A stretch of 64,000 nucleotides of DNA from a virus (taxonomy: Duplodnaviria; Caudoviricetes). Under the pieces are notes generated by a model. It was not told where the DNA came from, ran no database searches, and worked only from the letters and a program-made list of their open reading frames with translations. Below, piece after piece: positions 14,658 through 56,476 of this stretch (position 1 is its first letter; each line of letters begins with the position of its first letter). The stretch is taken from positions 9,046 to 73,045 of IMG/VR virus record IMGVR_UViG_3300028591_000184. One strand, 5' to 3'. A program made the translations under genes and the position numbers.

Positions 14658-14742
14658 TAACTTTGTCGAATAAAAGTCATATTCTGACTTTTAGTTGGTT
14701 AAATGATGGGCGGGTGTAGTGATACACACCGCCCATTTCTTT
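14658..14742 (+). ncRNA. short antisense transcription unit (promoter, hairpin, terminator)
   Basis: TTTG(14634)-N20-TAACTTTG(14658); AAAAGTCA/TGACTTTT hairpin; GC stem TGGGCGGGTGT/ACACACCGCCCA followed by TTTCTTT. Confidence 0.45.
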
Positions 14743-39109: not shown

Positions 39110-39117
39110 TACCTTTG
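39110..39117 (+). promoter_or_regulatory. early promoter TACCTTTG
   Basis: TAnnTTTG match ahead of the first rightward gene. Confidence 0.65.
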
Positions 39118-39208: not shown

Positions 39209-39715
39209 ATGGGTAAAACTAAAGAAACGAAAGTCATGAATGTAGAAAGTGTAAAAACAGCTATCGAAAACGGTGAGGAGTTAACGTTATCACAGACGAT
39301 AAACGCTTATCTGGCAATTCACGCAGTGGAACATTACTGCGCTGCCGTTGGTGCAAATGTGGAAGCAGTGCAGAAGTGTTTAAATTTGTGCCAAAAGGAG
39401 GAGGGAGTTTGGTGGCTCTATACCTGTCCTGCCATTGACGGCACGAACTCCGACGGCACGCAGCAACCGACAAAACAGGAGTGGAAAGAAAAGAACCCTG
39501 CTGCCGTAGAAGTGGGAAACATAAACGGGAAGTGCTGGTTTAAGCGTCCGTTTGTCATTGGTGACGCTCGAGGTGTGCGCAGTGTTGTTGCTGCCTTAGA
39601 CAATTACACCGAAGCAAAGCGGACTGCAAAAGAGCGTGAAACGGCAAAGATAGCAGCCGCAGCCGCAGTGCTTGGGGTTGACGTTGAAACGTTGTTAGCT
39701 CTGAAAAAGAAGTAA
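39209..39715 (+). CDS. early hypothetical protein (168 aa)
   Basis: ORF track; followed by a terminator. Confidence 0.75.
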   Translation: MGKTKETKVMNVESVKTAIENGEELTLSQTINAYLAIHAVEHYCAAVGANVEAVQKCLNLCQKEEGVWWLYTCPAIDGTNSDGTQQPTKQEWKEKNPAAVEVGNINGKCWFKRPFVIGDARGVRSVVAALDNYTEAKRTAKERETAKIAAAAAVLGVDVETLLALKKK

Positions 39716-39739
39716 GAAACGACACGACACGCACGAAAG

Positions 39740-39773
39740 CAGGGAGCACTTAAAAAAGTGCTCCTTCTTTTCT
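39740..39773 (+). terminator. rho-independent terminator
   Basis: GGGAGCACT-TAAAAA-AGTGCTCCT followed by TCTTTTCTTT. Confidence 0.7.
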
Positions 39774-39870
39774 TTCGCACTTTGTCAAATGTAGCTTGAA
39801 TTTATTTCAAACGGTTGCAAGCCCGAACAAATACAGAGCAGACAAGTAATAACAATTTAAACGAACGAAC

Positions 39871-40602: not shown

Positions 40603-40620
40603 ACAACACAGAGCACACTC

Positions 40621-41596
40621 AGTACGATAACTGAGTGTAATGTGGCTACCGATTTATCGGTACTGGTTGCAAGCCCAGACAGACAACATTCAAGCGGTTA
40701 GAGCGTATGCCGAGGGGCGCAAGTCATAGCGGCAGCCGTTACGCAGGTGAAACCGATAGCGAACGAAGACACATGGTGTCGGGCGTCGTGAAAGGGGAGT
40801 AGCCGAGAGGACAGCAGCCTGACGGCTGAAATGGTGAGCGACATGTCTACGTCCCGGTTCCTCTTAAAAAATCATATTCTTTTAGATTATTATCTCATCT
40901 CGTGATGAGAGTACGATAATAGCCGGATGGCTACTTTCCGAGAGCGACTGCGTTAGCGCAGTACGATAAATCAGCGGATTTGTCGTGGTGGTTCCCGCCA
41001 AAAGTACGATAATTCATTTAATCACTTTAGCAGATTATCGGGTCGTGTGCTTTTTGAGCAGTACGATAATTGCCTCGTTTCAGTCTGATTTGATGTCGGG
41101 CTGGGCGTTGGTTGAGAGTTGTGTTGTTCGGGTACGATTACGGCTGCGTTGAAAGATATTACGGGTGTAAGACCCACAGCATAAAGAATGGTTGGCAGAG
41201 GATTCAAAAACTGCCATTATCCCACGGTTGCGAGTGAAGATGCCGAAAGGGTCTCGCAGGAGAGAATGAAAACGATAATAAAAACGAAGTGGGAGAGACT
41301 ACGAGAGCAGTACGATAATTCCGTATTGCTCTTGCCACAACCCAACTAAAAGTTATGAAAAGAGTACTTTTGCATTTGCAGGCATTGGCATTATTTCTTC
41401 CGTGCCTGCTCGTTTTGAGCGATGGGCATTTCCTTGTGAATGTCCTCGGAGTTGTTTATGTGGCGGTTTTGTACCGCCTGAGTAGTACGAGAAAGGGAAA
41501 GAAATTCTTTCTCAGATACTACCATGAAATTCTCCGTTTGGAGAACATGATGTAGTCTTTCGCTGTGCATACCTGTCGGTGTGCGCAGTACGATAT
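40621..41596 (+). repeat. dispersed AGTACGATAA motif array, mostly hairpin-preceded
   Basis: exact copies at 40621, 40910, 40960, 41003, 41060, 41309; variants at 41131 and 41587. Confidence 0.8.
41355..41555 (+). CDS. small membrane protein
   Basis: two hydrophobic segments followed by a basic tail. Confidence 0.65.
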   Translation: MKRVLLHLQALALFLPCLLVLSDGHFLVNVLGVVYVAVLYRLSSTRKGKKFFLRYYHEILRLENMM

Positions 41597-41780
41597 TTTT
41601 CGGGTATAGATTTTTGAAGGCGAAGTCCTCTTGAGCCGTCCCGCCTGTGTTGTGAGCAGGGAAAACGACTGAAAATCGGACGCACGGAAGGAAAACCGTA
41701 AGACAATAAAACCTGAGCGAGTCTCGTAGGGGAGTGCGATAATACTCTCCTCTATTTTATAAACCAACTAAAATAGAGTT

Positions 41781-42011
41781 ATGACAAATTATCGTTGCAT
41801 CGTGACCATGAAGAATGGTTCACACAAAATCGTGCGCATGGCAAAGAATGTCATGGCACATGTAGTTTATGAGTTCAGAAAATATCAGCAGAGCATATTC
41901 AGCGACATTGTGTTGCTGGAGTTGCCGGCTGACGTATGGTTGTTGCTGAACGAGGTAAAGAACCTCGTTTTTATCAACGAGTACACGGGAGAGAAGCTTG
42001 AGATTGCGTAG
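41781..42011 (+). CDS. hypothetical protein
   Basis: bounded by cassette elements. Confidence 0.7.
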   Translation: MTNYRCIVTMKNGSHKIVRMAKNVMAHVVYEFRKYQQSIFSDIVLLELPADVWLLLNEVKNLVFINEYTGEKLEIA

Positions 42012-42059
42012 TCTTTCGGGAGTCTTGCATGGCTCCCACAGTTTAACCAATTAAAAGTT

Positions 42060-42245
42060 ATGAAAATTTACAAGATTGTGCACGACCCTGGCGGTTGGTG
42101 TGTAGCCTATTTCGCAGGCTTGCACGAGAATGGCGAAAGCCGTTGGCACAGAATTTCCAACCTCTACATGTACAGAGGTTGGGCTCAGGCGTTTGCTCGT
42201 AGGATGAAGATAAAAGTCATCAACTACGAGAGTTATTTCAAGTAG
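42060..42245 (+). CDS. hypothetical protein
   Basis: bounded by cassette elements. Confidence 0.7.
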   Translation: MKIYKIVHDPGGWCVAYFAGLHENGESRWHRISNLYMYRGWAQAFARRMKIKVINYESYFK

Positions 42246-42321
42246 TCTTTTCGGCATGGGTGGGTTTTATTCGTTCGTTTGCCCGCCTGTGCTGACTATG
42301 TTTAACCAAAGAAAAGATGAT

Positions 42322-42528
42322 ATGAAGTATTTCAGAGTAAAAAAAGAGTACGATAATGTTCGCAGGAACGATGTCGACATATTGGTACAGAATGAGTTGT
42401 ATACAGAACGAGAGGTAGACAGGTTCAAAATACCTAAGAAGTATCTCGCCGTTGTCAACGTACGGAAGAACGACACATATTGGTTTTTCGGAGCACGTTT
42501 CTCGTCTGATGTTCCATATTCATCCTAA
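42322..42528 (+). CDS. hypothetical protein
   Basis: start trimmed to MKYFRV after TTTAACCAAA leader. Confidence 0.7.
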   Translation: MKYFRVKKEYDNVRRNDVDILVQNELYTEREVDRFKIPKKYLAVVNVRKNDTYWFFGARFSSDVPYSS

Positions 42529-42586
42529 AGTCTCAGCAGCCATAAAACGGCTGCGCTATTGTTTAACCAACTAAAAGTAAAAGAGT

Positions 42587-44278
42587 ATGTTATTTTTTAA
42601 AAATGCGTTTAAGAACTACGAGGAGTTCAAGGAACTCTTCGGAGTACAGGAACACGGCAACGGAGAGAAGTCTCGTAGAAACAAAATCCTTCTGTCCTTG
42701 TATAAAAGCAAGGACATCTTGCACATGATGGCAAATCAGAAGGAGGTCTTCGAGAAAGGCGACTTTCGTTGGCTCTGCCGAAAGGAGTACCCGATGGGTG
42801 TAAGTTTCTACGACATAACGAGCATGACCTCGTTAGGTTTTGAAATTATGCACCTCCTCAAGAATGAGAGTTCTATGAGAGGTGTCTACTACCTTGACAT
42901 CCCGCTTCTCGGGTCTGTAAAAAGTAGTCTGTTTGAGTCAGACGACTTTCACGGATTGTGCGAGGATGGCGATGTCCGTTCCATCCGCTACGTCAACGTA
43001 GAGCGCCAGCGTGTCTTCAAGATGCGCGCAGGAAAATTCATGCGTAAGCTGATTGAGGAAAACGTGCGTCTCGACCAAATTCTTCCCGAGCAGGTGAAGA
43101 TATGGTTCTGTGAGGATTTTGCCGAACGTTGGAAGGCGTATGCCTCCAACGAAATCAACGACGACAGATATACGCTGTTTGTCAACGACAACTTCGAGGA
43201 CATCTACGACAGCGGACGCTGCCGAGGAGATTTCGGCTCCTGCATGGTCAATGATGGCTACTGGACTTTCTACCGAGATAGCGTGAAGGCGAAAGCCGCC
43301 TATCTGGAGGATAAAAACGGTGACATCGTCGCCCGTTGCATCATCTACACCGAGGTGCACGATGGTCTTGGAAATATCCTCCGCCTTGCTGAGCGTCAGT
43401 ATTCGTCAGATGGTGACGAGACGCTGAAACGTTTGCTTGTCATGCGCCTCATCGGGGGTGGTCACATCGACGGCTACAAGCGTGTTGGTGCTGACTGTCA
43501 TTCGCCGAAGGCGTTTGTCGATACCGACGGCAATGCGCTGAAGAATTGTGACCTTTGGATAGATTGTAATCTGAGAGACTACGATACCGTATCTTATCAA
43601 GACTCGTTCAAGGATTACGAACCTGACGAGTGTGTTGCAAGAAATTGTGACTCGATTGATAACCTATCCATCACGGATGGGGTTTTCAATAGAGGCGAGT
43701 GGTCTGAGTACCACGATGAGTATATCTCCGAAAACGACGCATATTACGTCGAAACAAGAGATGACTATTTCTATTATAACGAGGTAGTCAGTGCCAGCGT
43801 AATGCGGAATGGTAGGTATTATTCCGAGTACTGTTTCGAGGAAGACTGCGTCGAAATCGGCAATAATTATTACTACGCCGGTCACAATGCAGAGGACTAC
43901 GAGGACTATGGCATCGGACGATGCCCTGAATGTGGTAACTACTTCCTTGAAGACTGCGGGCATTATTCAGATGTCACAGACGAAACATACTGTGACTATT
44001 ACTGTCTTCAAAAGGCAGAACAACGTTACAAGGAAGATAACTGGTTCTACTCAGAGTACGACGATGACTATTACGAGGACGGTGATGAAGTTGTGACGGC
44101 ATGGAAGTGGGATTTTCTGCTCCACCGCTATGTGGAAACATCCATCCATTGCGACTCTCTCAAAGAACTCTTTGAGGTCAATGAGGCTTCCTATTTTGAA
44201 GGGAGGTATTACCTCGACAAAGTCGGCTTCGACGGTGAACCTGCGCACATTGCCGCCGCCCAGCTCCATGTCGCTTAA
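42587..44278 (+). CDS. uncharacterised 563-aa protein with GSCM...ARCIIY domain and acidic Tyr/Cys-rich C-terminus
   Basis: ORF track; motifs read from the translation. Confidence 0.75.
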   Translation: MLFFKNAFKNYEEFKELFGVQEHGNGEKSRRNKILLSLYKSKDILHMMANQKEVFEKGDFRWLCRKEYPMGVSFYDITSMTSLGFEIMHLLKNESSMRGVYYLDIPLLGSVKSSLFESDDFHGLCEDGDVRSIRYVNVERQRVFKMRAGKFMRKLIEENVRLDQILPEQVKIWFCEDFAERWKAYASNEINDDRYTLFVNDNFEDIYDSGRCRGDFGSCMVNDGYWTFYRDSVKAKAAYLEDKNGDIVARCIIYTEVHDGLGNILRLAERQYSSDGDETLKRLLVMRLIGGGHIDGYKRVGADCHSPKAFVDTDGNALKNCDLWIDCNLRDYDTVSYQDSFKDYEPDECVARNCDSIDNLSITDGVFNRGEWSEYHDEYISENDAYYVETRDDYFYYNEVVSASVMRNGRYYSEYCFEEDCVEIGNNYYYAGHNAEDYEDYGIGRCPECGNYFLEDCGHYSDVTDETYCDYYCLQKAEQRYKEDNWFYSEYDDDYYEDGDEVVTAWKWDFLLHRYVETSIHCDSLKELFEVNEASYFEGRYYLDKVGFDGEPAHIAAAQLHVA

Positions 44279-44347
44279 TTAAGTCTCTAAGGGTGTGTCT
44301 TGCATGACACATCCGCTATATATAAACCAACTAAAATTTTATAGAAT

Positions 44348-45358
44348 ATGAACAAAGAATTATTATTCAATTTGTATGCCATCCACTCTCCGAGTGGTGG
44401 TGAGAAGAAGATGCGCAAGTTTATCAAAAGGTACATCGCACAGAACTGCGGTGAGGTAGAGGTCGTACAGGATGCTCTCGGCAATCTGTTATGCACGAAG
44501 GGGGTCTCTGACACCTATCCATGCCTTGCGTCGCACATCGACCAAGTACAGCATAAGCATTCTCGTGATTTCGTTTGTATCGAGTCACAAGGAGTGGTAT
44601 TCGGTTTTTCTCCGAAATGCCGCGAGCAGCAGGGGCTTGGCGCAGACGACAAGAACGGAATTTACATCTGTCTTGAATGTCTGAAAAAATACGATGTCTT
44701 GAAAGTTGCCTTCTTTGTAGGTGAGGAGGTTGGATGCGTCGGCTCTTCCGATGTAGACCTTACGTTCTTCAAGGACTGCAGGTTTATCGTTGAGCCTGAC
44801 CGCAAAGGTCACGCAGACCTCATTACATCCATGTTTTGCGGTGAGGTATGCTCCCCTGAGTTTATAGCAGCTATCGGGGGTGACAAGTTCGGCTATCGCG
44901 AGGAGCATGGTTCCATCACCGATGTCGGCGAACTTGTCGAGCGTGGTGTTGGAATATCCTGTCTGAACCTGTCTTGCGGCTACTACGAGGCTCACACAGA
45001 CCAAGAGTTCACGGTTCTGTCAGAACTTGAAAACTGTCATCATTTCGTTGAGACCATCATTGAGACCTGTTCTGACGTTTTCCCGTTTGAGTATGTAGAT
45101 AGATGGGGATATTATAATGGCTACGGTGGCTATTTTGGTGGCTTTCATCACTATGATGAAGAATATTGGAACGGAGGGTATTACGATGAGGATTTCGACA
45201 TGATGACAGAAATCCTCCACTCACGGCCAGGGATGACGTTTGAGGAGGTTTCAACCGACTATGGTATCAATTTCTACACGCATAGGATGAGCGAATTGGA
45301 AGAAATCTACAATGATGTCAAAGCCCTGATGCGAGATGAAAAGAAGAAAGTCTCTTGA
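44348..45358 (+). CDS. M20/M28-family zinc metallopeptidase
   Basis: SHID, GLGADDKNG, GEEVG, EPDR, GYYEAH metal-ligand motifs. Confidence 0.85.
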   Translation: MNKELLFNLYAIHSPSGGEKKMRKFIKRYIAQNCGEVEVVQDALGNLLCTKGVSDTYPCLASHIDQVQHKHSRDFVCIESQGVVFGFSPKCREQQGLGADDKNGIYICLECLKKYDVLKVAFFVGEEVGCVGSSDVDLTFFKDCRFIVEPDRKGHADLITSMFCGEVCSPEFIAAIGGDKFGYREEHGSITDVGELVERGVGISCLNLSCGYYEAHTDQEFTVLSELENCHHFVETIIETCSDVFPFEYVDRWGYYNGYGGYFGGFHHYDEEYWNGGYYDEDFDMMTEILHSRPGMTFEEVSTDYGINFYTHRMSELEEIYNDVKALMRDEKKKVS

Positions 45359-45414
45359 GGTGTGTGTGGCGGGAAACCGCCATACACTAACAATATAAAC
45401 CAAAATATATAATT

Positions 45415-45762
45415 ATGAACGAAGTGTATATCATCGAATTTGAAGCCTACCACCATTATAGTGGTACGGATATGGAAAACAGAACCGAAAGGGCTGTCTT
45501 TGGTGTCTTCGACACAGGGCGAAGAGCCATCTGCTATCTGCGTCGGTTTCTTGACGAGAAAGATAAATACTTAGAGTATTTTGACCACTATCTGAAAACG
45601 GAGGAAGATAAAGCTGGCTATATGTCGGCAGAGGCTCGCCGCAGGTATCGGAGTGAGTGTGAAAGCTACAAAGAACTCGTGACGGAAAGGTTGACGATGC
45701 GACGTATGCGTATAAACGAGCTCAGAGCTCCGAGTGAAGAGATAGTCGACCTGTATTGTTAG
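45415..45762 (+). CDS. hypothetical protein
   Basis: cassette-bounded ORF. Confidence 0.7.
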   Translation: MNEVYIIEFEAYHHYSGTDMENRTERAVFGVFDTGRRAICYLRRFLDEKDKYLEYFDHYLKTEEDKAGYMSAEARRRYRSECESYKELVTERLTMRRMRINELRAPSEEIVDLYC

Positions 45763-45805
45763 TCTCTCATGTGACCTGTATGGTCACAGCCAAAAAATAA
45801 CCAAT

Positions 45806-46129
45806 ATGCAAATCAGATTACAATTCATCAATGGTGTCTTCATGCCGACGGATGCCGTCAGTATACAGCGTCTTTCCGATACAATCAGGAGAGAGTACAT
45901 ACCGGAAAGCTTGTTTGACAGATATTCGCCAGTTCTCGTAAGAAATGGTTACTCACTTTCCGTCGCTGGCTACAATCCAGAACCTACTACTGTGCCTCTT
46001 CGTACAACGACGGGATTGTGTGACAATACAAAGCCCGTCTCTAACCCATGTACGAAATGCCATCTGCGTGAAGTTTGCGACAGCGACGACTGCGGTCGTA
46101 AACTGTTCAGTCTCTTTAGCCGTAGATAA
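45806..46129 (+). CDS. hypothetical protein with C-terminal Cys cluster
   Basis: CxxC...CxxxxC; 3' end runs through a cassette element. Confidence 0.6.
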   Translation: MQIRLQFINGVFMPTDAVSIQRLSDTIRREYIPESLFDRYSPVLVRNGYSLSVAGYNPEPTTVPLRTTTGLCDNTKPVSNPCTKCHLREVCDSDDCGRKLFSLFSRR

Positions 46130-46167
46130 AATACGGCACGAAACATAACCAATTAAAACGAAGTGAT

Positions 46168-46449
46168 ATGAATAACAACGCATGGAATTATTACAAGAGA
46201 GAAATCAGCCCCGCCGTTTGCAAGCTAAAGGAAAAGGTGTGGCCTAAGCCGTTTTGGTATGAGGTGTGGATTGACCTCGACGAACGTTTCGATGACGAGG
46301 TATGGCCTGCCATCAAAGGCCTGCCCGTTGAAGCAGCTGCAAAGTATGTGCTCGACTGGCTTATTAACCAAGAACGTTTCTATTCTTCTCCGAGATACTA
46401 TCAGATGCTTGACAGATTAGTTGCCGCTGCTGATTTTCAGCCGGCGTAG
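46168..46449 (+). CDS. hypothetical protein
   Basis: cassette-bounded ORF. Confidence 0.7.
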   Translation: MNNNAWNYYKREISPAVCKLKEKVWPKPFWYEVWIDLDERFDDEVWPAIKGLPVEAAAKYVLDWLINQERFYSSPRYYQMLDRLVAAADFQPA

Positions 46450-46503
46450 TCTTTTATCTCCCCTTGCATGGGGAGAGCCATTAACCATAAAAACGAAACG
46501 AAT

Positions 46504-46761
46504 ATGAAGAAATTTATCCTGACGTATGTCGGTCTCAGCGATTCCGACTACGAGGCCAACGGCTACTCAGAAGCATTCCTCTTCGACACCATTGAAGATG
46601 CGAGACAACATTTGAAGGTGCTTGCCGAGAGTGAACGTTTCAACTGCGACGACGAAGGCTCTGAATACGAAATTCTCAAAGACACCGAGGACGAGTATCG
46701 TATGTCGTGGAGCGGGCACGGAGAGCAGATACGCCTTCAGATCCACGAGGTAAATCTTTAG
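46504..46761 (+). CDS. small acidic protein
   Basis: 85 aa, 20 D/E versus 8 K/R. Confidence 0.7.
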   Translation: MKKFILTYVGLSDSDYEANGYSEAFLFDTIEDARQHLKVLAESERFNCDDEGSEYEILKDTEDEYRMSWSGHGEQIRLQIHEVNL

Positions 46762-46828
46762 TTTTAGTTGGTTGGGGCGAGGAGGAGAGATACCTCCCGC
46801 CCTTTCTATTAACCAAAATTCAAAAAGT

Positions 46829-47053
46829 ATGGCTTACGCAATTTCACTTCAACAAAAAGGCCAGATTGTCGGGTATTTCTGGCTGACGAAAAAGTCTGCA
46901 AAAGTTACCCGCAATCCACACAAAAGACATGGCACTTTCTCTACGCTCTATGAAGCATTCAGCACTTTAGTATTTGATGCGAGACTACAACAAGTTTACG
47001 AAGGTGAATTTTCAAGACTATGCGGTTACAAAAAGAAAATTGTAGAAGTTTAG
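46829..47053 (+). CDS. hypothetical protein
   Basis: start trimmed to MAYAIS. Confidence 0.6.
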   Translation: MAYAISLQQKGQIVGYFWLTKKSAKVTRNPHKRHGTFSTLYEAFSTLVFDARLQQVYEGEFSRLCGYKKKIVEV

Positions 47054-47117
47054 TGTGTTCAGGTGCGGCTATGCTAATACATGACTGCACCTACTATCTA
47101 ACCAAAATGTAATGAAT

Positions 47118-47462
47118 ATGACACGAAAACAGATTTCGGCAGCAGAACAGACTCTGCCACCGTACAGAGAGCGTAGTGCAGAACAAGTGACGTTGGCAAA
47201 AGAACTGCGTTGTCGCAACATGATTAACTCTCTCATGATTTACGGCAACATCAACAGCCCGTATAACGAACAGACAAAAGAATTTAATTTCTATTTGCAT
47301 GATTATGTTTCAGGCGATGAGTTTTCTTTTCTTGGAACCAAACGTGTTCTTGAATTAGTTCGCGAGCAGCAGGAGGATTTTAAGAAAGCCAAAGTGAATA
47401 ACAGTGTCTATGTGGATTGTGAGGGTTGTTCTTATAACTCATGCACATGGGCTGATGATTAG
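47118..47462 (+). CDS. hypothetical protein
   Basis: cassette-bounded ORF. Confidence 0.7.
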   Translation: MTRKQISAAEQTLPPYRERSAEQVTLAKELRCRNMINSLMIYGNINSPYNEQTKEFNFYLHDYVSGDEFSFLGTKRVLELVREQQEDFKKAKVNNSVYVDCEGCSYNSCTWADD

Positions 47463-47518
47463 TCTCGTATGTGGTGATGTCATCACCACAACCACGTCTA
47501 ACCAAAAACTTTGAAAAT

Positions 47519-47788
47519 ATGATTAAGCAGTATGTAGTATTCGGAGATTATGCGGCAAACGCCGCATCCGAAGGTAATTTCACGAGAGTGAAAAGAATTT
47601 GCGAGGACTCACCGAACTCCATCGGCTACCGCACATTCAAGAGTGAAGAAGAACGTCAGGCGTACCTTTGCGGACTTGAAGATGCTACGGGATGGATGGA
47701 AAGCTATCCGCTTAGCACCGACGAAGTAAAAAAGCTATCCAAACGGATACGTCTGTCGGGCATTGAAGACCTTGCTGACAAATGGTAG
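47519..47788 (+). CDS. hypothetical protein
   Basis: start trimmed to MIKQYV. Confidence 0.7.
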   Translation: MIKQYVVFGDYAANAASEGNFTRVKRICEDSPNSIGYRTFKSEEERQAYLCGLEDATGWMESYPLSTDEVKKLSKRIRLSGIEDLADKW

Positions 47789-47839
47789 TCTTACACCCTC
47801 TATGTGAGGGTACGATTGTCTAACCCAAAACAAACGGAT

Positions 47840-48064
47840 ATGAGTCAAGAGAAACGTCACATTTGGCTTCGCTGCGGCATGACCATCGAAGCCACTCCCG
47901 AGGAGGCCGAACGTATCATGCAAGGCGACTCCATCACTTTCGACAATGTTCTTACCGAGGGCCGCTACAAGTTTGTCGGCGACAGTTACATTCCCGCCTG
48001 CGAGGTCGATGATTACAACGAGACATACGGAACGACTCACCTGAGCCGAAACGTAGAGTTGTAG
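47840..48064 (+). CDS. hypothetical protein
   Basis: start trimmed to MSQEKR. Confidence 0.7.
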   Translation: MSQEKRHIWLRCGMTIEATPEEAERIMQGDSITFDNVLTEGRYKFVGDSYIPACEVDDYNETYGTTHLSRNVEL

Positions 48065-48109
48065 AGTGTCTTTCGCGCCTACGGGCGCACTATTATTAAC
48101 CAAAACCTT

Positions 48110-48505
48110 ATGATTATGAGATTACAAGAGAATTTCCAGAATGTGCTCTCCTATGCCGCAGGCATGGAGGCATGGGTAAACGACAATCTCCCACTCGGTC
48201 CGCTGAAGATGACGTTCGCATCAGACTTCGCCATAGCTGATTGGTACGGAGCGAAAGAGGTAAAGGAAACCTACGAGCGTGTCAAGGCCGAATGGCTCAG
48301 CAACTACAAGGCATTTACTGAGGTTGTCATTGCACTGAACATGCTGTCATGGGCGCACAACACGCTCATGAGGCAAGGTATCGACGGACGTGAGCCGTTC
48401 ATCAACCTCTATGCCGAGTTATATTATCAATCGAAAGACGACTTCTATGCCAAGTACGAAGGCAACGAGGAAGCCTGCGACTACTTCTTCGAGATGACCG
48501 ATTAG
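48110..48505 (+). CDS. conserved phage hypothetical protein
   Basis: TFASDFAIADWYG...EWLSNYKAFTE motif. Confidence 0.7.
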   Translation: MIMRLQENFQNVLSYAAGMEAWVNDNLPLGPLKMTFASDFAIADWYGAKEVKETYERVKAEWLSNYKAFTEVVIALNMLSWAHNTLMRQGIDGREPFINLYAELYYQSKDDFYAKYEGNEEACDYFFEMTD

Positions 48506-48559
48506 TCTTTAACCCTCTATTATAGAGGGTACGATGTTTAACCCCTAAAATTAAGGAAT

Positions 48560-48877
48560 ATGCCAGAAACAGTTAAGACCGATGCAAAGCGCATCAACGA
48601 AATCACAGGCCGTCCGATGGCCGAGTGTGAGAACCAGGCAATGCAGATTGCCATGTGTGTGAAAGCCATGAAAACTCGCATCGTCGAGTTTTACTTCATC
48701 AAAAAGGACGGAACGACGCGACAGGCTTTCGGAACCCTTCAGGATGACATCATCCTGCCTCTCATTAACAGCGATAGTAACCGCCCTGCCAATCCTGACC
48801 TCGTCACTTATTTCGATACGGTGGCACAGAACTTCCGCAGTTTTCGCAAGGAGAATTTTAAGTCTTACATAGCATGA
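48560..48877 (+). CDS. SH3/Sm-like beta-barrel protein (DUF2693/WYL_2-like)
   Basis: VEFYFIKKDGTTRQAFGTL...VTYFD...NFRSFR pattern. Confidence 0.7.
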   Translation: MPETVKTDAKRINEITGRPMAECENQAMQIAMCVKAMKTRIVEFYFIKKDGTTRQAFGTLQDDIILPLINSDSNRPANPDLVTYFDTVAQNFRSFRKENFKSYIA

Positions 48878-49077
48878 TGCGCGACAGGGAAGGAAAAATC
48901 ATTCGTGTTGGAGATTGTGTGCTTTGGCACGACCCAGACGAAGAAACGCGGGATTTAACTCGCATTTGGGCCATAGATAAAATCTGTGGAGATAACGAAG
49001 ACTCCATCATCATTATCTCTGATGAGTATGGGAGTGAAGCGGATGTTTTCGGTCACGAACTTGAACTTTATTGTTAG
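48874..49077 (+). CDS. small acidic protein
   Basis: ATGA-coupled to the previous gene. Confidence 0.65.
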   Translation: MMRDREGKIIRVGDCVLWHDPDEETRDLTRIWAIDKICGDNEDSIIIISDEYGSEADVFGHELELYC

Positions 49078-49134
49078 CCTCTCTGCCCACGTTTGCAGGC
49101 GTGGGCGCATTATTTAACCAAATTTTTCACGAAT

Positions 49135-49515
49135 ATGAGAACCTACACATTTAAGACTACCGCAGAGCAGAAAGTGCTCATCAAGAAACTTGTCGAAGCC
49201 ATCGAAGCCTGCCGCAAGGCCGACATCCAGTTTTTCACAACCGACGGAGCCAACGAGCTGTTGTGCTACAACTCCACCGACTTCGACCAAGGGCCAGACA
49301 CCGGTGACAATCTCTCAGGAGAATGGCAGGAAGGAACCGACCACCTCGGCTATCCGTGCAAGAGGTGGGTACTCACTGACAAGGCAGAACTTGCCGGATG
49401 GATGGAAATCCCCATCGCCGACTGCGACATCATCGACGGCGAAGCTATCGGCGTAGACTTCGTGTCGTGGGGTTGCTGCAATGACGGCTTCTTCGCCCAC
49501 AAGAAGCAAGTTTAG
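49135..49515 (+). CDS. acidic hypothetical protein
   Basis: start trimmed to MRTYTF. Confidence 0.7.
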   Translation: MRTYTFKTTAEQKVLIKKLVEAIEACRKADIQFFTTDGANELLCYNSTDFDQGPDTGDNLSGEWQEGTDHLGYPCKRWVLTDKAELAGWMEIPIADCDIIDGEAIGVDFVSWGCCNDGFFAHKKQV

Positions 49516-49574
49516 TCTCTCAGCCGTACTTGCATGTACGGCGCAATGTTTAACCAAATAAATATTATGAAACT

Positions 49575-49847
49575 ATGTTACCAAATCAATTAGAAAAGTA
49601 CACCAATTACAACAGCTATCTTATCGGCTACAGGAAAGGACAGCATGAAGTCAACGAGCAAAGGCTGATGAAATTCATCGGAGTTCTGATAAAGAAGTAT
49701 AAGAACCCCTACATCAGGTTCATGTGGGTGTCAAATGCAGACAAGCCGATGTGCGTAATTTATTCTGACGTCAAGAAGATGGAACGTGCAACAAAACTCA
49801 TCCCTTTCGATGAAGCGGAAAATAACATCACGGAGGAGGGTGTATGA
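49575..49847 (+). CDS. hypothetical protein
   Basis: ORF track. Confidence 0.65.
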   Translation: MLPNQLEKYTNYNSYLIGYRKGQHEVNEQRLMKFIGVLIKKYKNPYIRFMWVSNADKPMCVIYSDVKKMERATKLIPFDEAENNITEEGV

Positions 49848-50140
49848 CGGAATACAAACAGCTCATCTATAAGGTTGAGGACACGTTTATCCTCGGTAAA
49901 ACATTACCTGTGGTGGCTATGCGACAGCTGCCGAAGTTGGCGGAACAGTTTGCGGCCCTTCCAGACAGTCCGCTGTATATCAACGGAACACAGAAAGCAA
50001 TCGCGTCTGGTATTATGACGTTCTATAACACCAATAAACGCTTCATGGATGACGAACAAGAACTGTTTGAAGCCTTCAACGTGGCGTGCAAGATGCACCA
50101 TCACAGCAGATACACGCTCAGACTTTTTGAAGCGCGTTAG
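49844..50140 (+). CDS. hypothetical protein
   Basis: ATGA-coupled. Confidence 0.65.
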   Translation: MTEYKQLIYKVEDTFILGKTLPVVAMRQLPKLAEQFAALPDSPLYINGTQKAIASGIMTFYNTNKRFMDDEQELFEAFNVACKMHHHSRYTLRLFEAR

Positions 50141-50197
50141 CCTCTCGGAAACCTGCCACAAAAGACAGGTTTCACCATAAACCAAAACCAAAGAAAT

Positions 50198-50884
50198 ATG
50201 AATGAACTTGTAAAAAACATTGAGTCTTTTGCATATAAGTATGGCAAAGAAAACAAGCAGGTTATGCGTGATTTGTTAAAGTATATTATCGGATATTTTA
50301 ACCCTGAGCGAACGCCTGACACAACATGGAAATATAGCAAAGAACAGAATGCTGAGTTCCATCGGATGATGCAGCAATACTTCATCCTCATGGGTGAACA
50401 ACTCAAGAAGAAAGAGTGGTATGACGCATGGGGTGACATCTTCATGTGGTTCACACCAAAGGGAGGCGCAAGAGGGCAATTCTTTACGCCTGACAATATC
50501 TGCGACCTCATGGCGCAATGCAACATCAATACAGACACAGAACCGACCATCTTGTGTGGCGCATTCGGAAAGAGAGTGACAATCAGCGACCCAGCCGCAG
50601 GCTCCGCACGAAACCTCCTCGCATCACACGCACGCTTCATTCGTGATAATAAGCGAAAGCCTTATCTTGTGGCCGAAGACATCGACCTCGACTGCTGCCG
50701 CATGTCAGCAGTCAATATGATGGCTCATGGATGCTTCGGTGAGGTGATATGCCACAATACACTCGCTGACCCGAAAGGACTTGTAGTTGGATATATCATC
50801 AATGAAGGCCTATACCCAATGCAACCAGGCATCCCTACCATCAGAGTCAAACACGAACCACAATGGTTCGTATCACTACGCTGA
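50198..50884 (+). CDS. N6-adenine DNA methylase-like protein (HsdM-like, no visible motif IV)
   Basis: GQFFTP and SDPAAGS motifs present; no NPP(Y/F). Confidence 0.75.
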   Translation: MNELVKNIESFAYKYGKENKQVMRDLLKYIIGYFNPERTPDTTWKYSKEQNAEFHRMMQQYFILMGEQLKKKEWYDAWGDIFMWFTPKGGARGQFFTPDNICDLMAQCNINTDTEPTILCGAFGKRVTISDPAAGSARNLLASHARFIRDNKRKPYLVAEDIDLDCCRMSAVNMMAHGCFGEVICHNTLADPKGLVVGYIINEGLYPMQPGIPTIRVKHEPQWFVSLR

Positions 50885-50953
50885 GTCTCTATCATCTTAT
50901 TGGCAGCAATAAGATGGTCAAATAACCAATTAACAATTATTACGACTCAACCT

Positions 50954-51310
50954 GCGACACAACAAGTGACACAATTAACACATTGTGTTACAAAGGGTTA
51001 CGATTAATGGTGACACAAGCAGTGACACAGCAAGTGACACAGCAAAACACCAAAACCCCTTAAAACCGCACTTAAAAGTCTGAATTTTTGTAAAATTCCT
51101 TTTATATACTTTAATTGCCGTATGAAAGTGACACAGCAAATGACACAACTAAGTTATTATATATCAACTTGTTATGTAAAGTGGTGACACAGCAAATGAC
51201 ACAACTAAGAAAGAAAAAAAAGAAAAAAGAAAAATAGAAAAAAAGAAAAATCCCCCCACACCCCCTTATAAAGAAAAAATAGAAAAAAGAAAAAATAAAA
51301 AAAATAAAGA
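50954..51310. repeat. TGACACA iteron-like repeats plus purine/A tract; candidate origin or recombinase arm sites
   Basis: 9 copies at 12-13 bp spacing in clusters; identical 26-mer at 51128 and 51184; A-rich tract 51208-51310. Confidence 0.75.
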
Positions 51311-51418
51311 AACTCTTTGGTCAAAAAACCGTTTTTTTTGCTTTTTTCATAAACGGAAACCAATCTATCCCACAAAACGTAATCGTATTATAAAAATATT
51401 ATTAACTTTGCAAACGAT

Positions 51419-52504
51419 ATGGACATCATTATCAAAGGACTCGACTACGAGCAGATGCGAAAGTTTCGCAACGCTATATCATACGGATATTTCAACGCCT
51501 ACGAGCTAAACCCGCGTGAATGGCGGCATACTTTCGTCGGCGCGTTTATCTGGAAATACCCAGGGCGCGTGAAACTGATGAACACAATTCGTCAGATTGT
51601 CGGACATGTACCAACATGGGAAGACATGGATGAAACGACACTAAAAGACCTCGTAGAAGAACTCAAAGAGCAGGGTCTTGCACCATCAAGTATCTACACG
51701 ATGTGCTCTGAACTGAAAGCTGTCCTCAACAGCAACTACAAACGCATACCATGCAGCAGAGAAGATTTAACGCAAATACTATCGGTCAAGAAAAACGCAT
51801 CACAGGCTATTTATCTGACACGAGAAGAAATGCAGCTAATCGTTGACTATAAGCCAGTCGGCGAACTTCAGCATTATGTGCAAAGAAATTTCGTCGTTGA
51901 AATGCTGACTGGCGCACGAAGGGTAGATGCTGAAAGACTCACACTCAACAACTGCGACCCGAACTCTGGCATATTGTCTTATATCCCACAAAAAACACCA
52001 AACATCATCGTTCGTGTACCCATCGACGAAAGAATGGGTCTGAGAAGGTTCCTCGTTAACACAACAAGACGGGAAACGTGTGCAGACGTGTTCAACGAAA
52101 CACTACGCATCATCTGCAGAAACTGCGGAATAAACGACATGACAACGGTGACAAGGGCCAACAAGACGATTACCACGGAAAAGTGGAAACTTATATCGTC
52201 ACACACAGGAAGACGCTCGTTCGCAACAAACCTGTTCCTTGCTGGCGTGTCATTGGAAGACATCGCCATGATGATGGGACACGGAAAGAACATCGAGACA
52301 ACGAAACGTTATATCTGTGCAGAACGTGCAGCAACGCCCGCCGTAATAGCTTATTTCCAGCAAGTAGACGCTGATAAGCAGTCCGAGCAGTACAAAAAAG
52401 CATACAACGATGCCATCGACGATGTCTTTGAGATACTTGACACTACGGCAATGCTCGACAAGGACGGAATTATATATCGAGAGATACATGCACTCAAAAA
52501 ATAA
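51419..52504 (+). CDS. tyrosine recombinase (phage integrase family)
   Basis: TGARRVD (catalytic R), QKT (K), HTGRR (HxxR), MGH, TTKRY (catalytic Y); TAACTTTG promoter at 51403. Confidence 0.9.
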   Translation: MDIIIKGLDYEQMRKFRNAISYGYFNAYELNPREWRHTFVGAFIWKYPGRVKLMNTIRQIVGHVPTWEDMDETTLKDLVEELKEQGLAPSSIYTMCSELKAVLNSNYKRIPCSREDLTQILSVKKNASQAIYLTREEMQLIVDYKPVGELQHYVQRNFVVEMLTGARRVDAERLTLNNCDPNSGILSYIPQKTPNIIVRVPIDERMGLRRFLVNTTRRETCADVFNETLRIICRNCGINDMTTVTRANKTITTEKWKLISSHTGRRSFATNLFLAGVSLEDIAMMMGHGKNIETTKRYICAERAATPAVIAYFQQVDADKQSEQYKKAYNDAIDDVFEILDTTAMLDKDGIIYREIHALKK

Positions 52505-53790: not shown

Positions 53791-54058
53791 ACTCTTGATA
53801 AGCTCATATAAATTACAATCGAGTTCTTTCGCAGTGATGCGCGAGAACTCACCACGGATGTCATCTAAACCAGAGATGCAGCTTGCTGCGAGGTCCGATA
53901 CCTCGGCATCCACAAAAAAGAGTTCTTTGACTTGTTGACACAAAAAGGAAAAGAATTAACTAACGTGAGTTCTAATACTCACAAGTGATGAACATTCATA
54001 AACGTCTGAAAAGGCAGACGTGGGGTGAAAGTCCCCTGCGAATCAGAACCCAAAGGGC

Positions 54059-54149
54059 GGGAGTGAAAATTGTGGTTTGATGTAGAAAGACCATAGGAGC
54101 AACAGGTTGGTAACGACCATGAGCGCGGGTTCGAGTCCCGCCACTCCCA
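54059..54149 (+). ncRNA. tRNA-like RNA resembling the tmRNA tRNA-like domain
   Basis: acceptor GGGAGTG/CACTCCC-A; T arm GCGGG-TTCGAGT-CCCGC; D-loop-like GGTTTGA; no canonical anticodon arm. Confidence 0.65.
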
Positions 54150-54165
54150 CTATAAAAACGAAAAA

Positions 54166-55585: not shown

Positions 55586-56476
55586 ATGCCAATACTTAAA
55601 AAAGATGATTTAACGCCTGAGCGTCCGGTGATAATAGTCCTATATGGAACACCTGGCGCAGGCAAAACTTCGGTTGCGACAACCGCAAACCAACCAATTC
55701 TCATCGACAGTGACAGAGGCTTCGACAGAGCAGTACAACGTATCGACACACTAACGGCTTCCTCGTGGGAGGAAATCGTGGCCGAGTATGATACTCTGAA
55801 GGGGTACAAAACCATTATCGTAGATACGGCAAAAGCTATGCTCGACGATTTTCTCGCTTCCTATGCCGTGCAATGCGACAGCCGACTGCGGACAAATTCT
55901 TTGAAGCGTTTCGGGCACATGGCTGATAACTTCAAGTTATTTGTTAACACCATTCGCTCGTATGGCGCAGACCTCGTGTTTATCTGCCACGACAAAGAAA
56001 CACAGGATGGGGACAATATAAAACACTCACCCGACTGCACTGGACAGTCTAAAGACCTGCTCGTCCGTATCGCCGACCAAGTAGGATATGTTTCAGTCGT
56101 CAACGGTAAGAGAACTATTCAGTTTGAACCACAAGAGAACTACGTCGGCAAAAACGTAGCTAAACTCGGAATGAAAGAGGTTCCTGATGTAACGTCCTCT
56201 GATTTCAAAACTTTCATGGATGGTATTATTACGGAAGTGAGAAAGGCCATCCAAAACAATTCTGAGGCGCAGCGTGAGGCTAACGAATTACTCGAAAACC
56301 TTAGAACATCGCTTGAAGGTGCTGTCAATCCTGAAGATTTCGATGCCTGTCTCGAAGCACGGATGCAACTGCCGTCACAACTTCGCAGGCCCTTCGCCGC
56401 CGAGGTAAACAAGAAGGCGAAAGAAAAGGGGTTCATCTTTGAGAAGACAGACGGTAAATACAAAAAAGAAGCATGA
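55586..56476 (+). CDS. AAA_24/Sak4-like ATPase (recombination)
   Basis: YGTPGAGKT, LIDSDRG, IIVDT, FICHDKE. Confidence 0.85.
   Translation: MPILKKDDLTPERPVIIVLYGTPGAGKTSVATTANQPILIDSDRGFDRAVQRIDTLTASSWEEIVAEYDTLKGYKTIIVDTAKAMLDDFLASYAVQCDSRLRTNSLKRFGHMADNFKLFVNTIRSYGADLVFICHDKETQDGDNIKHSPDCTGQSKDLLVRIADQVGYVSVVNGKRTIQFEPQENYVGKNVAKLGMKEVPDVTSSDFKTFMDGIITEVRKAIQNNSEAQREANELLENLRTSLEGAVNPEDFDACLEARMQLPSQLRRPFAAEVNKKAKEKGFIFEKTDGKYKKEA

Follow-up and report, generated by a model that had tools for sequence, protein, structure and literature searches.

A hairpin element set between stop and start codons delimits exchanged genes in an array of a temperate Bacteroidales phage

Intercistronic hairpins that define or protect mRNA ends are familiar from the early RNase III sites of phage T7 and from the REP elements of E. 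coli operons. Other junction elements are already known from phages, including the PeSL cassettes of T4-type phages (PMC2839356, PMC4122927), the SAS/ESAS repeats of Cluster K mycobacteriophages (PMC3203893), and phage-borne clusters of integron attC sites (PMC9892861). Here we describe an element that recurs at the gene junctions of an array in the phage record IMGVR_UViG_3300028591_000184, and that consists of a box over the stop codon, a hairpin of variable sequence, and a second box containing AACC ahead of the next gene's leader. The window, meaning the whole stretch of DNA that was analyzed, covers 64 kb out of this 73-kb IMG/VR virus record. On balance, we favor a composite reading in which the element is probably both an intercistronic RNA punctuation signal of one long operon and, at the DNA level, a set of portable homologies. 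Full-text searches on conserved intergenic stem-loops of Prevotella phages and on phage-borne attC clusters, together with the PeSL and SAS papers, yielded no account of an element with a stop-codon box and an AACC box in Bacteroidales phages.

Like a PeSL cassette, the element forms a composite stop-to-ATG unit with a stem-loop among small accessory or orphan genes, and the crossovers of insertions, deletions, and replacements fall within the unit at varying positions with no dedicated recombinase needed. It differs from PeSLs in having no host-type promoter and in carrying a box over the stop codon and another 3' box before the leader. It also differs in its setting, a temperate siphovirus of a Bacteroidota host without Shine-Dalgarno use. 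Its likeness to attC sites lies in a conserved structure with varying sequence, strand-specific folding, and a same-strand array beside a tyrosine recombinase, whereas here the flanks are unpaired, the sense strand folds, the loops are of RNA type, the crossovers are dispersed, and the recombinase is not IntI. As with the Cluster K repeats, a short box precedes many start codons in a single orientation, often after an inverted repeat. A role in translation initiation was suggested for SAS (PMC3203893). The inverted repeats of Cluster K are conserved in sequence and the box there includes the ribosome-binding site, whereas our stems vary and a second box lies at the stop codon. Hairpins of the T7 and REP kind likewise sit between the cistrons of a long transcript, but they lack the two fixed single-stranded boxes and the stop/start register, and for the present element processing is conjectural.

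An earlier note on this DNA had reported a repeated unit after nearly every gene from 41.5 to 50.9 kb, and direct sequence reading found it at 19 of the 20 places listed. At these 19–20 same-strand junctions, a 5' box is followed by a variable hairpin, the 3' box RCNATTGTYTAACCAA, an A-rich leader, and an ATG. The 5' box, TAGTCTY (variants AGCCT and AGTGT), overlaps the stop codon, beginning at its second base in 44 of 75 elements from eight genomes, and 14 of 21 array genes stop with TAG, versus 8 of 49 other open reading frames (ORFs). Hairpins of 5–15 bp with unrelated sequences follow the 5' box after 2–4 nt and begin 6–7 nt past the stop codon. From the hairpin to AACC the distance is about 4–9 nt (mostly 8–9), and from AACC to the ATG about 13–27 nt (mostly 18–23); in one copy a single base separates the 3' box from the ATG. 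The 3' box had been recognized in the earlier note at too short an extent, its real length being ~16 nt. Across 99 aligned copies from nine sources, the second position after the hairpin is C in 97 of 97 rows with a letter, and the fourth is A in 93 of 96. The leader is 53% A and 9% G. Inspection by eye showed no complement to the 5' box, in either the 3' flank or 16S rRNA, that was consistent across lineages.

Searches with explicit models gave the same picture. The two-box pattern had 11 matches versus 3.1 expected, all on the + strand. A covariance model (R1), which the earlier note had proposed building, was made from 29 copies, and R1 was also used for alignment since MAFFT alone misregistered the stems. 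It recovered 16 window copies at E ≤ 1, all on the + strand and spanning 42009 to 50931, and 99 of its 99 matches across 254 kb of window and relatives were on the gene strand. At E ≤ 0.01, R1 matched nothing outside the array in the whole 73-kb record. By this measure the element is absent from the late and replication modules, where the earlier note had not noticed it, but one half-element does occur in the late module. No junction element matched Rfam at E ≤ 1; Rfam matches outside the junctions were twister, tmRNA-like, DUF2693-RNA-like, and speF-like. The array and the copies of the element are as follows.

41355–50884, + strand: array of about 25 small same-strand genes, from ORF lists, an independent gene call on an identical contig, and Pfam/NCBIfam
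41299–41354, + strand: half-element before the first array gene, with a hairpin whose loop holds the GTACGATAA tag, then an AACCC box and a leader up to ATG 41355 (sequence reading)
41553–41596, + strand: partial copy lacking the AACC box, with a 5' box at the stop codon, a hairpin of 12 bp, and a GTACGAT tag
41720–41780, + strand: full copy with no upstream ORF, comprising 5' box, hairpin (41728–41751), AAACC box, and leader
42009–42059, + strand: element with a TTGCAT loop (R1, 36.5 bits)
42243–42321, + strand: element with a long hairpin that is linked to the upstream gene family in three genomes (R1, 21.9 bits)
42528–42586, + strand: element (R1, 38 bits)
44281–44347, + strand: element between the gene for a 563-aa protein and a peptidase gene, TTGCAT loop kept (R1)
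45349–45414, + strand: element with its 5' box ahead of a TGA stop and a GAAA loop (sequence reading)
45760–45805, + strand: element (R1, 32.7 bits)
46108–46167, + strand: element with the stop codon within the hairpin (R1, 23.1 bits)
46447–46503, + strand: element with a TTGCAT loop (R1, 38.4 bits)
46759–46828, + strand: variant copy with an inverted 3' box in place of the 5' box, a longer hairpin, and a normal 3' box
47051–47111, + strand: element with 5' box AGTGT (R1, 22.9 bits)
47460–47518, + strand: element (R1, 26.5 bits)
47786–47839, + strand: element (R1, 42.2 bits)
48064–48109, + strand: element with a UACG loop (R1)
48503–48559, + strand: element (R1, 44 bits)
49075–49134, + strand: element with 5' box AGCCT (R1, 22.9 bits)
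49513–49574, + strand: element with a TTGCAT loop (R1, 46.7 bits)
50138–50197, + strand: element with 5' box AGCCT (R1, 17.6 bits)
50883–50931, + strand: last copy, with no downstream gene and then a repeat block (R1, 19.7 bits)
14678–14734, − strand: late-module half-element after the tape-measure gene (near 14701), with hairpin, 3' box, leader, and ATG, without a 5' box

At 46759, where the earlier note had listed a degenerate copy, the 5' box is missing. What takes its place is an exact inverted copy of the start of the consensus 3' box plus leader, followed by the longer hairpin. This form is kept in four relatives, with examples in L091 (12458–12524), L096 (13022–13087), and, twice, L093 (12693–12763 and 13520–13582).

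Evidence for folding comes from the pattern of substitutions. In the R1-fitted alignment, standard pairs occupy 97.2% of cells versus 47.9% after shuffling and 40–48% with a slid partner, and the covariation score is 0.95 versus 0.18 for shuffled alignments with double changes at all six pairs, figures that lean towards structure because the alignment was fitted to structure. At the junction of the 563-aa gene with the peptidase gene in four genomes, the TTGCAT loop is kept and the stems differ by compensating changes. To distinguish the strands, we used a helix search that is independent of R1 and treats G.T and A.C alike. In the window's clade, G.T outnumbered A.C by 34 to 8 (p = 7e-5; p = 5e-4 allowing for composition), and among 272 non-identical helices of a sister clade by 142 to 14 (p = 7e-22). 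GNRA and UNCG tetraloops made up 10 of 24 loops in the window's clade and 42 of 114 in the sister clade versus ~5% expected. The p-values of these comparisons are optimistic because the copies are related, but their direction is clear. Given both the asymmetry and the tetraloop excess, the coding-strand copy is the one selected to fold, most simply as RNA. An RNA signal, which the earlier note had offered as its alternative, thus fits the structural evidence better than a recombination site. Hairpin G+C is 60% versus 47% for the window.

One loop recurs on hairpins that are otherwise unrelated. TTGCAT(G) was found in 8 of 61 hairpins in the window's clade, with the variants TTGCAC, TTGCAG, and TCGCAT, and in the window itself at 42021, 44290, 46455, and 49520. 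Its center is self-complementary, and loop-loop contacts or a loop-binding protein are conceivable.

The element is widespread among relatives of the phage. Among the proteins encoded in the window are a 2200-aa tape-measure protein, terminase, portal, and major head protein, along with a primase, a Holliday-junction resolvase, a Sak4-like annealing protein, methyltransferases, and a tyrosine integrase. Relatives are known from rumen and gut viromes, proviruses, and Prevotella and Bacteroidaceae metagenome-assembled genomes, and Bacteroidota-type -7 promoter boxes precede the integrase gene and the first gene of the rightward operon (39110). Judged by its gene content, the sources of its relatives, and its host-type -7 boxes, this is therefore a temperate siphovirus-type phage of a Bacteroidales host, of rumen Prevotella type. 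Counting variant boxes, the element architecture is shared by at least 50 contigs of related Bacteroidales phages, with window-type boxes in six related records and variant boxes in two lineages. In the sister clade, whose terminase is ~50–54% identical, the architecture is kept upstream of a homologous integrase. There the 5' box is TAGCCAAAA or GCCTRAAA and the 3' box is TATTAACCAA, with a near-invariant GAATTATG at the start, and an ACC box lies at the usual distance from the ATG in 694 of 742 junctions of 30–90 nt. Thirteen relatives with ~50% terminase identity were considered as integrase-bearing genomes free of the element, an idea we rejected since their arrays have the same architecture with variant boxes. 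In the sister-clade arrays L101–L142, the GCCTRAAA box contains the stop codon and GCC is the last sense codon, so many array proteins end in alanine because of a nucleotide-level signal.

Comparison of relatives supports the claim that the elements delimit shuffled units, since gene content and order vary and, in close sister-clade pairs, gene-sized differences have their crossovers at the element. In eight arrays of the window's clade, core families keep a rough order with many interspersed singletons and several order changes. Evidence of exchange within this clade is indirect and consists of hairpin modules shared across unrelated contexts. The element at 48064–48109, for example, matches a junction of unrelated genes in relative G002 at 100% over 45 nt, versus ~70–80% for shared genes. 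In shared modules, similarity begins at the 5' box or hairpin and is lost past the AACC box, ahead of or at the ATG. Similar hairpins go with the same upstream gene family (p = 4e-4) and similar leaders with the same downstream family (p = 1.5e-3), a modest effect drawn from pairs that are not independent, which implies that breaks in linkage tend to lie close to the 3' box. In two genomes, near-identical elements flank the peptidase gene (L100, 9921–9968 and 11086–11133; L090, junctions 9939 and 10990; 98% over 48 nt, hairpin 88%). Such an arrangement would result from a single crossover with a circular gene-plus-element intermediate.

Precise crossovers were obtained from 42 arrays of the sister clade, where 93 clean pairwise observations reduced to 28 distinct gene-sized insertions or deletions (indels). 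In 23 of these 28 the crossover fell inside a junction element, although junctions make up only ~9% of the array, an excess with p = 3e-12 even versus a 20% null. Inserts were mostly one small gene in size (205–633 nt). Crossover intervals ranged from -48 to +30 nt relative to the AACC box with microhomology of 0–19 nt, and they were placed in the 5' box, hairpin foot, hairpin, 3' box, leader, or ATG. Because the crossovers are spread over short shared blocks and the phage encodes a Sak4-type annealing protein, the pattern fits recombination between dispersed short homologies rather than an enzyme with one cleavage point. An exact crossover at TAAC was not adopted, as similarity ends after AACC in two of five shared-hairpin pairs and the indel crossovers are dispersed. 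The candidate driver of short-homology exchange is the following gene.

55586–56476, + strand: Sak4-like single-strand annealing protein (PHROG 124, E = 5.5e-39)

The composite reading joins these two lines of evidence: a sense-strand hairpin with fixed boxes that keep their register with the stop and start codons, and the exchange seen at the element. Because the hairpin begins so soon after the stop codon, a terminating ribosome would have to open it, and it would re-form behind that ribosome in the polycistronic transcript. There it may attenuate read-through, mark a point of processing or cleavage, or both, and it may protect the 3' end of the upstream cistron. It would also keep the next A-rich, G-poor leader unpaired as a standard initiation region without a Shine-Dalgarno sequence. 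Initiation in Bacteroidota depends on low secondary structure, and an A-rich, G-poor leader is as expected (PMC6847099). The fixed boxes would be read by a sequence-specific RNA-binding or RNA-cutting factor. We speculate that the WYL_2 protein, which has an Sm-like fold and is encoded in most arrays, is a candidate for this reader. At the DNA level, the 20–30 dispersed copies would serve as portable short homologies. Gene-sized insertions, deletions, and replacements would come from recombination among them, which the Sak4-type annealing and recombination functions of the phage probably carry out. The array may thereby be a hyperplastic, cassette-like region, a functional analogue of PeSL cassettes in T4-type phages. 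Its genes with notable assignments or size are listed here.

42587–44278, + strand: 563-aa protein with no assigned family
44348–45358, + strand: M20/M42-like peptidase (Pfam/NCBIfam match)
48560–48877, + strand: WYL_2/DUF2693 protein (Pfam/NCBIfam match)
50198–50884, + strand: N6_Mtase-like protein (Pfam/NCBIfam match)

Two gene pairs, 48560/48874 and 49575/49844, are coupled through ATGA in the ORF list just as had been reported, and the label "early" that was given to the array genes is grounded in their position alone.

Several points weigh against the composite reading. Its transcript ends, processing, and attenuation are deductions from the DNA, and the factor that would read the boxes is a postulate. 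The excess of G.T would be expected from folded sense-strand DNA too. The hairpins, though G+C-rich, do not look like canonical intrinsic terminators: just 18 of 75 copies have at least five T in the 9 nt that follow, and at each of the first two positions past the stem T occurs in only ~10%. The precise indels come from a sister clade with variant boxes. Finally, megablast against GenBank phages, single-protein scans of IMG/VR, and an exact-protein look-up turned up no close relative of the phage whose gene content differs. The look-up returned only the same phage, and no relatives within the window's clade reached 88% identity over 150 nt.

A stricter equivalence to PeSLs would make the hairpin a terminator and the 16-nt 3' box a promoter, at which a phage factor redirects host RNA polymerase to give one gene per transcription unit. 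The conserved ~16-nt block at a narrow distance from the ATG would suit such a role. In T4 late promoters, one short box can suffice. The stop-to-ATG layout is also as in PeSLs (PMC2839356). Nevertheless, no Bacteroidota -33/-7 promoter boxes were found in the junctions, the + strand of the array has just two -7 boxes and both lie within genes, and a sigma-70 consensus scan stayed at chance level. Neither a phage RNA polymerase nor a sigma factor appeared among the window proteins scanned against families; the 2200-aa protein was considered as a phage RNA polymerase and rejected, since it is the tape-measure protein. Furthermore, the transcript leader would measure only ~10 nt, and in one copy box and ATG are one base apart. 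We therefore consider one gene per transcription unit unlikely.

The earlier note had proposed an integron-like cassette system, of which the shuffling of units at the elements has stood and a dedicated recombinase-driven mechanism has not. Such a system would treat the hairpins as folded single-stranded DNA recombination sites, with the adjacent tyrosine recombinase or another enzyme moving gene-plus-site cassettes. Strand-specific folding, near-identical elements flanking a gene, and the break in linkage near the AACC box, where the hairpin goes with the upstream gene and the leader with the downstream gene, would all be in keeping with it. So would the location of the array, which adjoins a tyrosine recombinase in every genome examined. 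The array was said to end at a repeat block and this recombinase, both of which we located after the last element.

50955–51312, + strand: repeat block with six exact copies of GTGACACAR arranged in spaced groups, and long A tracts after them
51419–52504, + strand: tyrosine recombinase of the phage integrase family; a host-type TAACTTTG box stands 8 nt upstream of its ATG

However, the flanking boxes are not complementary and form no stem like that of an R box, and covariation is confined to the variable helix. Folding is on the sense strand here but, in integrons, on the strand antisense to the cassette ORFs, and the enrichment of UNCG and GNRA loops points to RNA. The 23 indel crossovers extend over ~80 nt, always in short shared blocks. 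On the integron-integrase model TIGR02249 the recombinase scores 21.1 bits versus a cut-off of 265, and its best matches, to generic models of Xer-type or phage integrases, all fall far short of the respective cut-offs. Co-occurrence of element and recombinase family, suggested in the earlier note as a check, was complete but uninformative, since the recombinase family is clade-wide and the two are always together. An integron-like system is thus quite unlikely. We regard as very doubtful the related proposal that the folded sense strand is the substrate of a dedicated enzyme, be it the neighboring Xer-like recombinase or an unrecognized one. If true, it would make the array a non-canonical integron-like platform for capturing accessory and anti-defence genes in Bacteroidales phages, and the dispersed crossovers would be a later overlay of ordinary homologous exchange.

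For the recombinase itself, lysogeny integrase is the simplest reading given its own promoter box and the relatives classed as proviruses, and a second role is possible. It lies at the array end in every relative examined.

Alternatively, the asymmetric 3' box could bind a phage repressor at each junction and block elongation in the lysogen. In being asymmetric, intergenic, multi-copy, variable among lineages, and set in one orientation, it recalls the stoperators of Cluster A mycobacteriophages (PMC9283540). Its invariant core amounts to just 4–5 nt, though, and box variants coexist within one genome; the covarying hairpin and the stop-codon box would be left unexplained, and no repressor was identified. 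We give this idea a very slim chance. Another idea is that an HUH (Y1) enzyme, recognizing a hairpin and short cleavage sites nearby, moves the units as transposon-like or REP-like single-strand elements. It would account for strand-specific folding and for hairpins at fixed distances from short conserved sites, but is hardly credible given that no HUH or Y1 transposase was found among the scanned proteins, hairpin sequences are highly diverse in one genome, and the stop/start register is strict.

With this element, a large group of temperate rumen and gut Bacteroidales phages is seen to carry its accessory genes as standard units of leader, ORF, stop box, and hairpin that are exchanged at their junctions. 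The PeSL principle is thereby extended to phages of a distant group, with hosts that make no use of Shine-Dalgarno sequences. The two fixed boxes point to a yet-undescribed factor acting on intercistronic RNA in Bacteroidota, where little is known so far about how mRNA is processed and translation initiated. As a practical marker for hyperplastic regions of such phages, which are likely rich in anti-defence genes, one can use the covariance model and the box patterns.

Upstream of the array lies a leader with tagged hairpins and two candidate ribozymes.

39783–39844, + strand: Twister-P1-like self-cleaving ribozyme candidate (Rfam 47.2 bits, E = 6e-8, below the gathering threshold of 67.2), core conserved in the alignment
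40607–40678, + strand: Twister-P5 ribozyme candidate at the start of the leader (Rfam 39.7 bits versus a gathering threshold of 37.6)
40607–41750, + strand: leader ahead of the array with GTACGATAA-tagged hairpins, 11 same-strand copies

The Twister-P5 candidate occurs at the same place in two relatives (L091, 4352–4417; L096, 5913–5979). The 11 copies of GTACGATAA, counted with at most one mismatch, span 40622–41742 in a non-coding leader of 0.75 kb, each within a different hairpin or at its 3' foot. The tag is similar to the RCNAT foot seen in junction hairpins, and some junction hairpin loops of relatives carry it too. Together, the twister candidates and this leader suggest that the operon RNA is probably heavily structured and processed. 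The first gene past the promoter box at 39110 (39209–39766) encodes 168 aa with no family match, and a canonical terminator at 39741–39766 with a T tract follows it; we speculate that this layout resembles that of an antiterminator gene with its first terminator behind it.

At the other end, GTGACACAR occurs nowhere else in the window and could represent arm-type integrase sites or iterons. ARAGORN found no tRNA or transfer-messenger RNA (tmRNA) gene near the integrase in the window or the provirus records, and the attachment site was not located; one of the "provirus" records is phage DNA up to its end. A tmRNA-like match of 94 nt lies at 54059–54152 on the + strand, 1.5 kb past the integrase (30.9 bits, E = 3e-9, below gathering), where ARAGORN made no call. 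This stretch may belong to an attachment site. Just before it, at 53922–54003 on the + strand, is a weak match to the DUF2693 RNA motif, and the array encodes the DUF2693/WYL_2 protein listed above.

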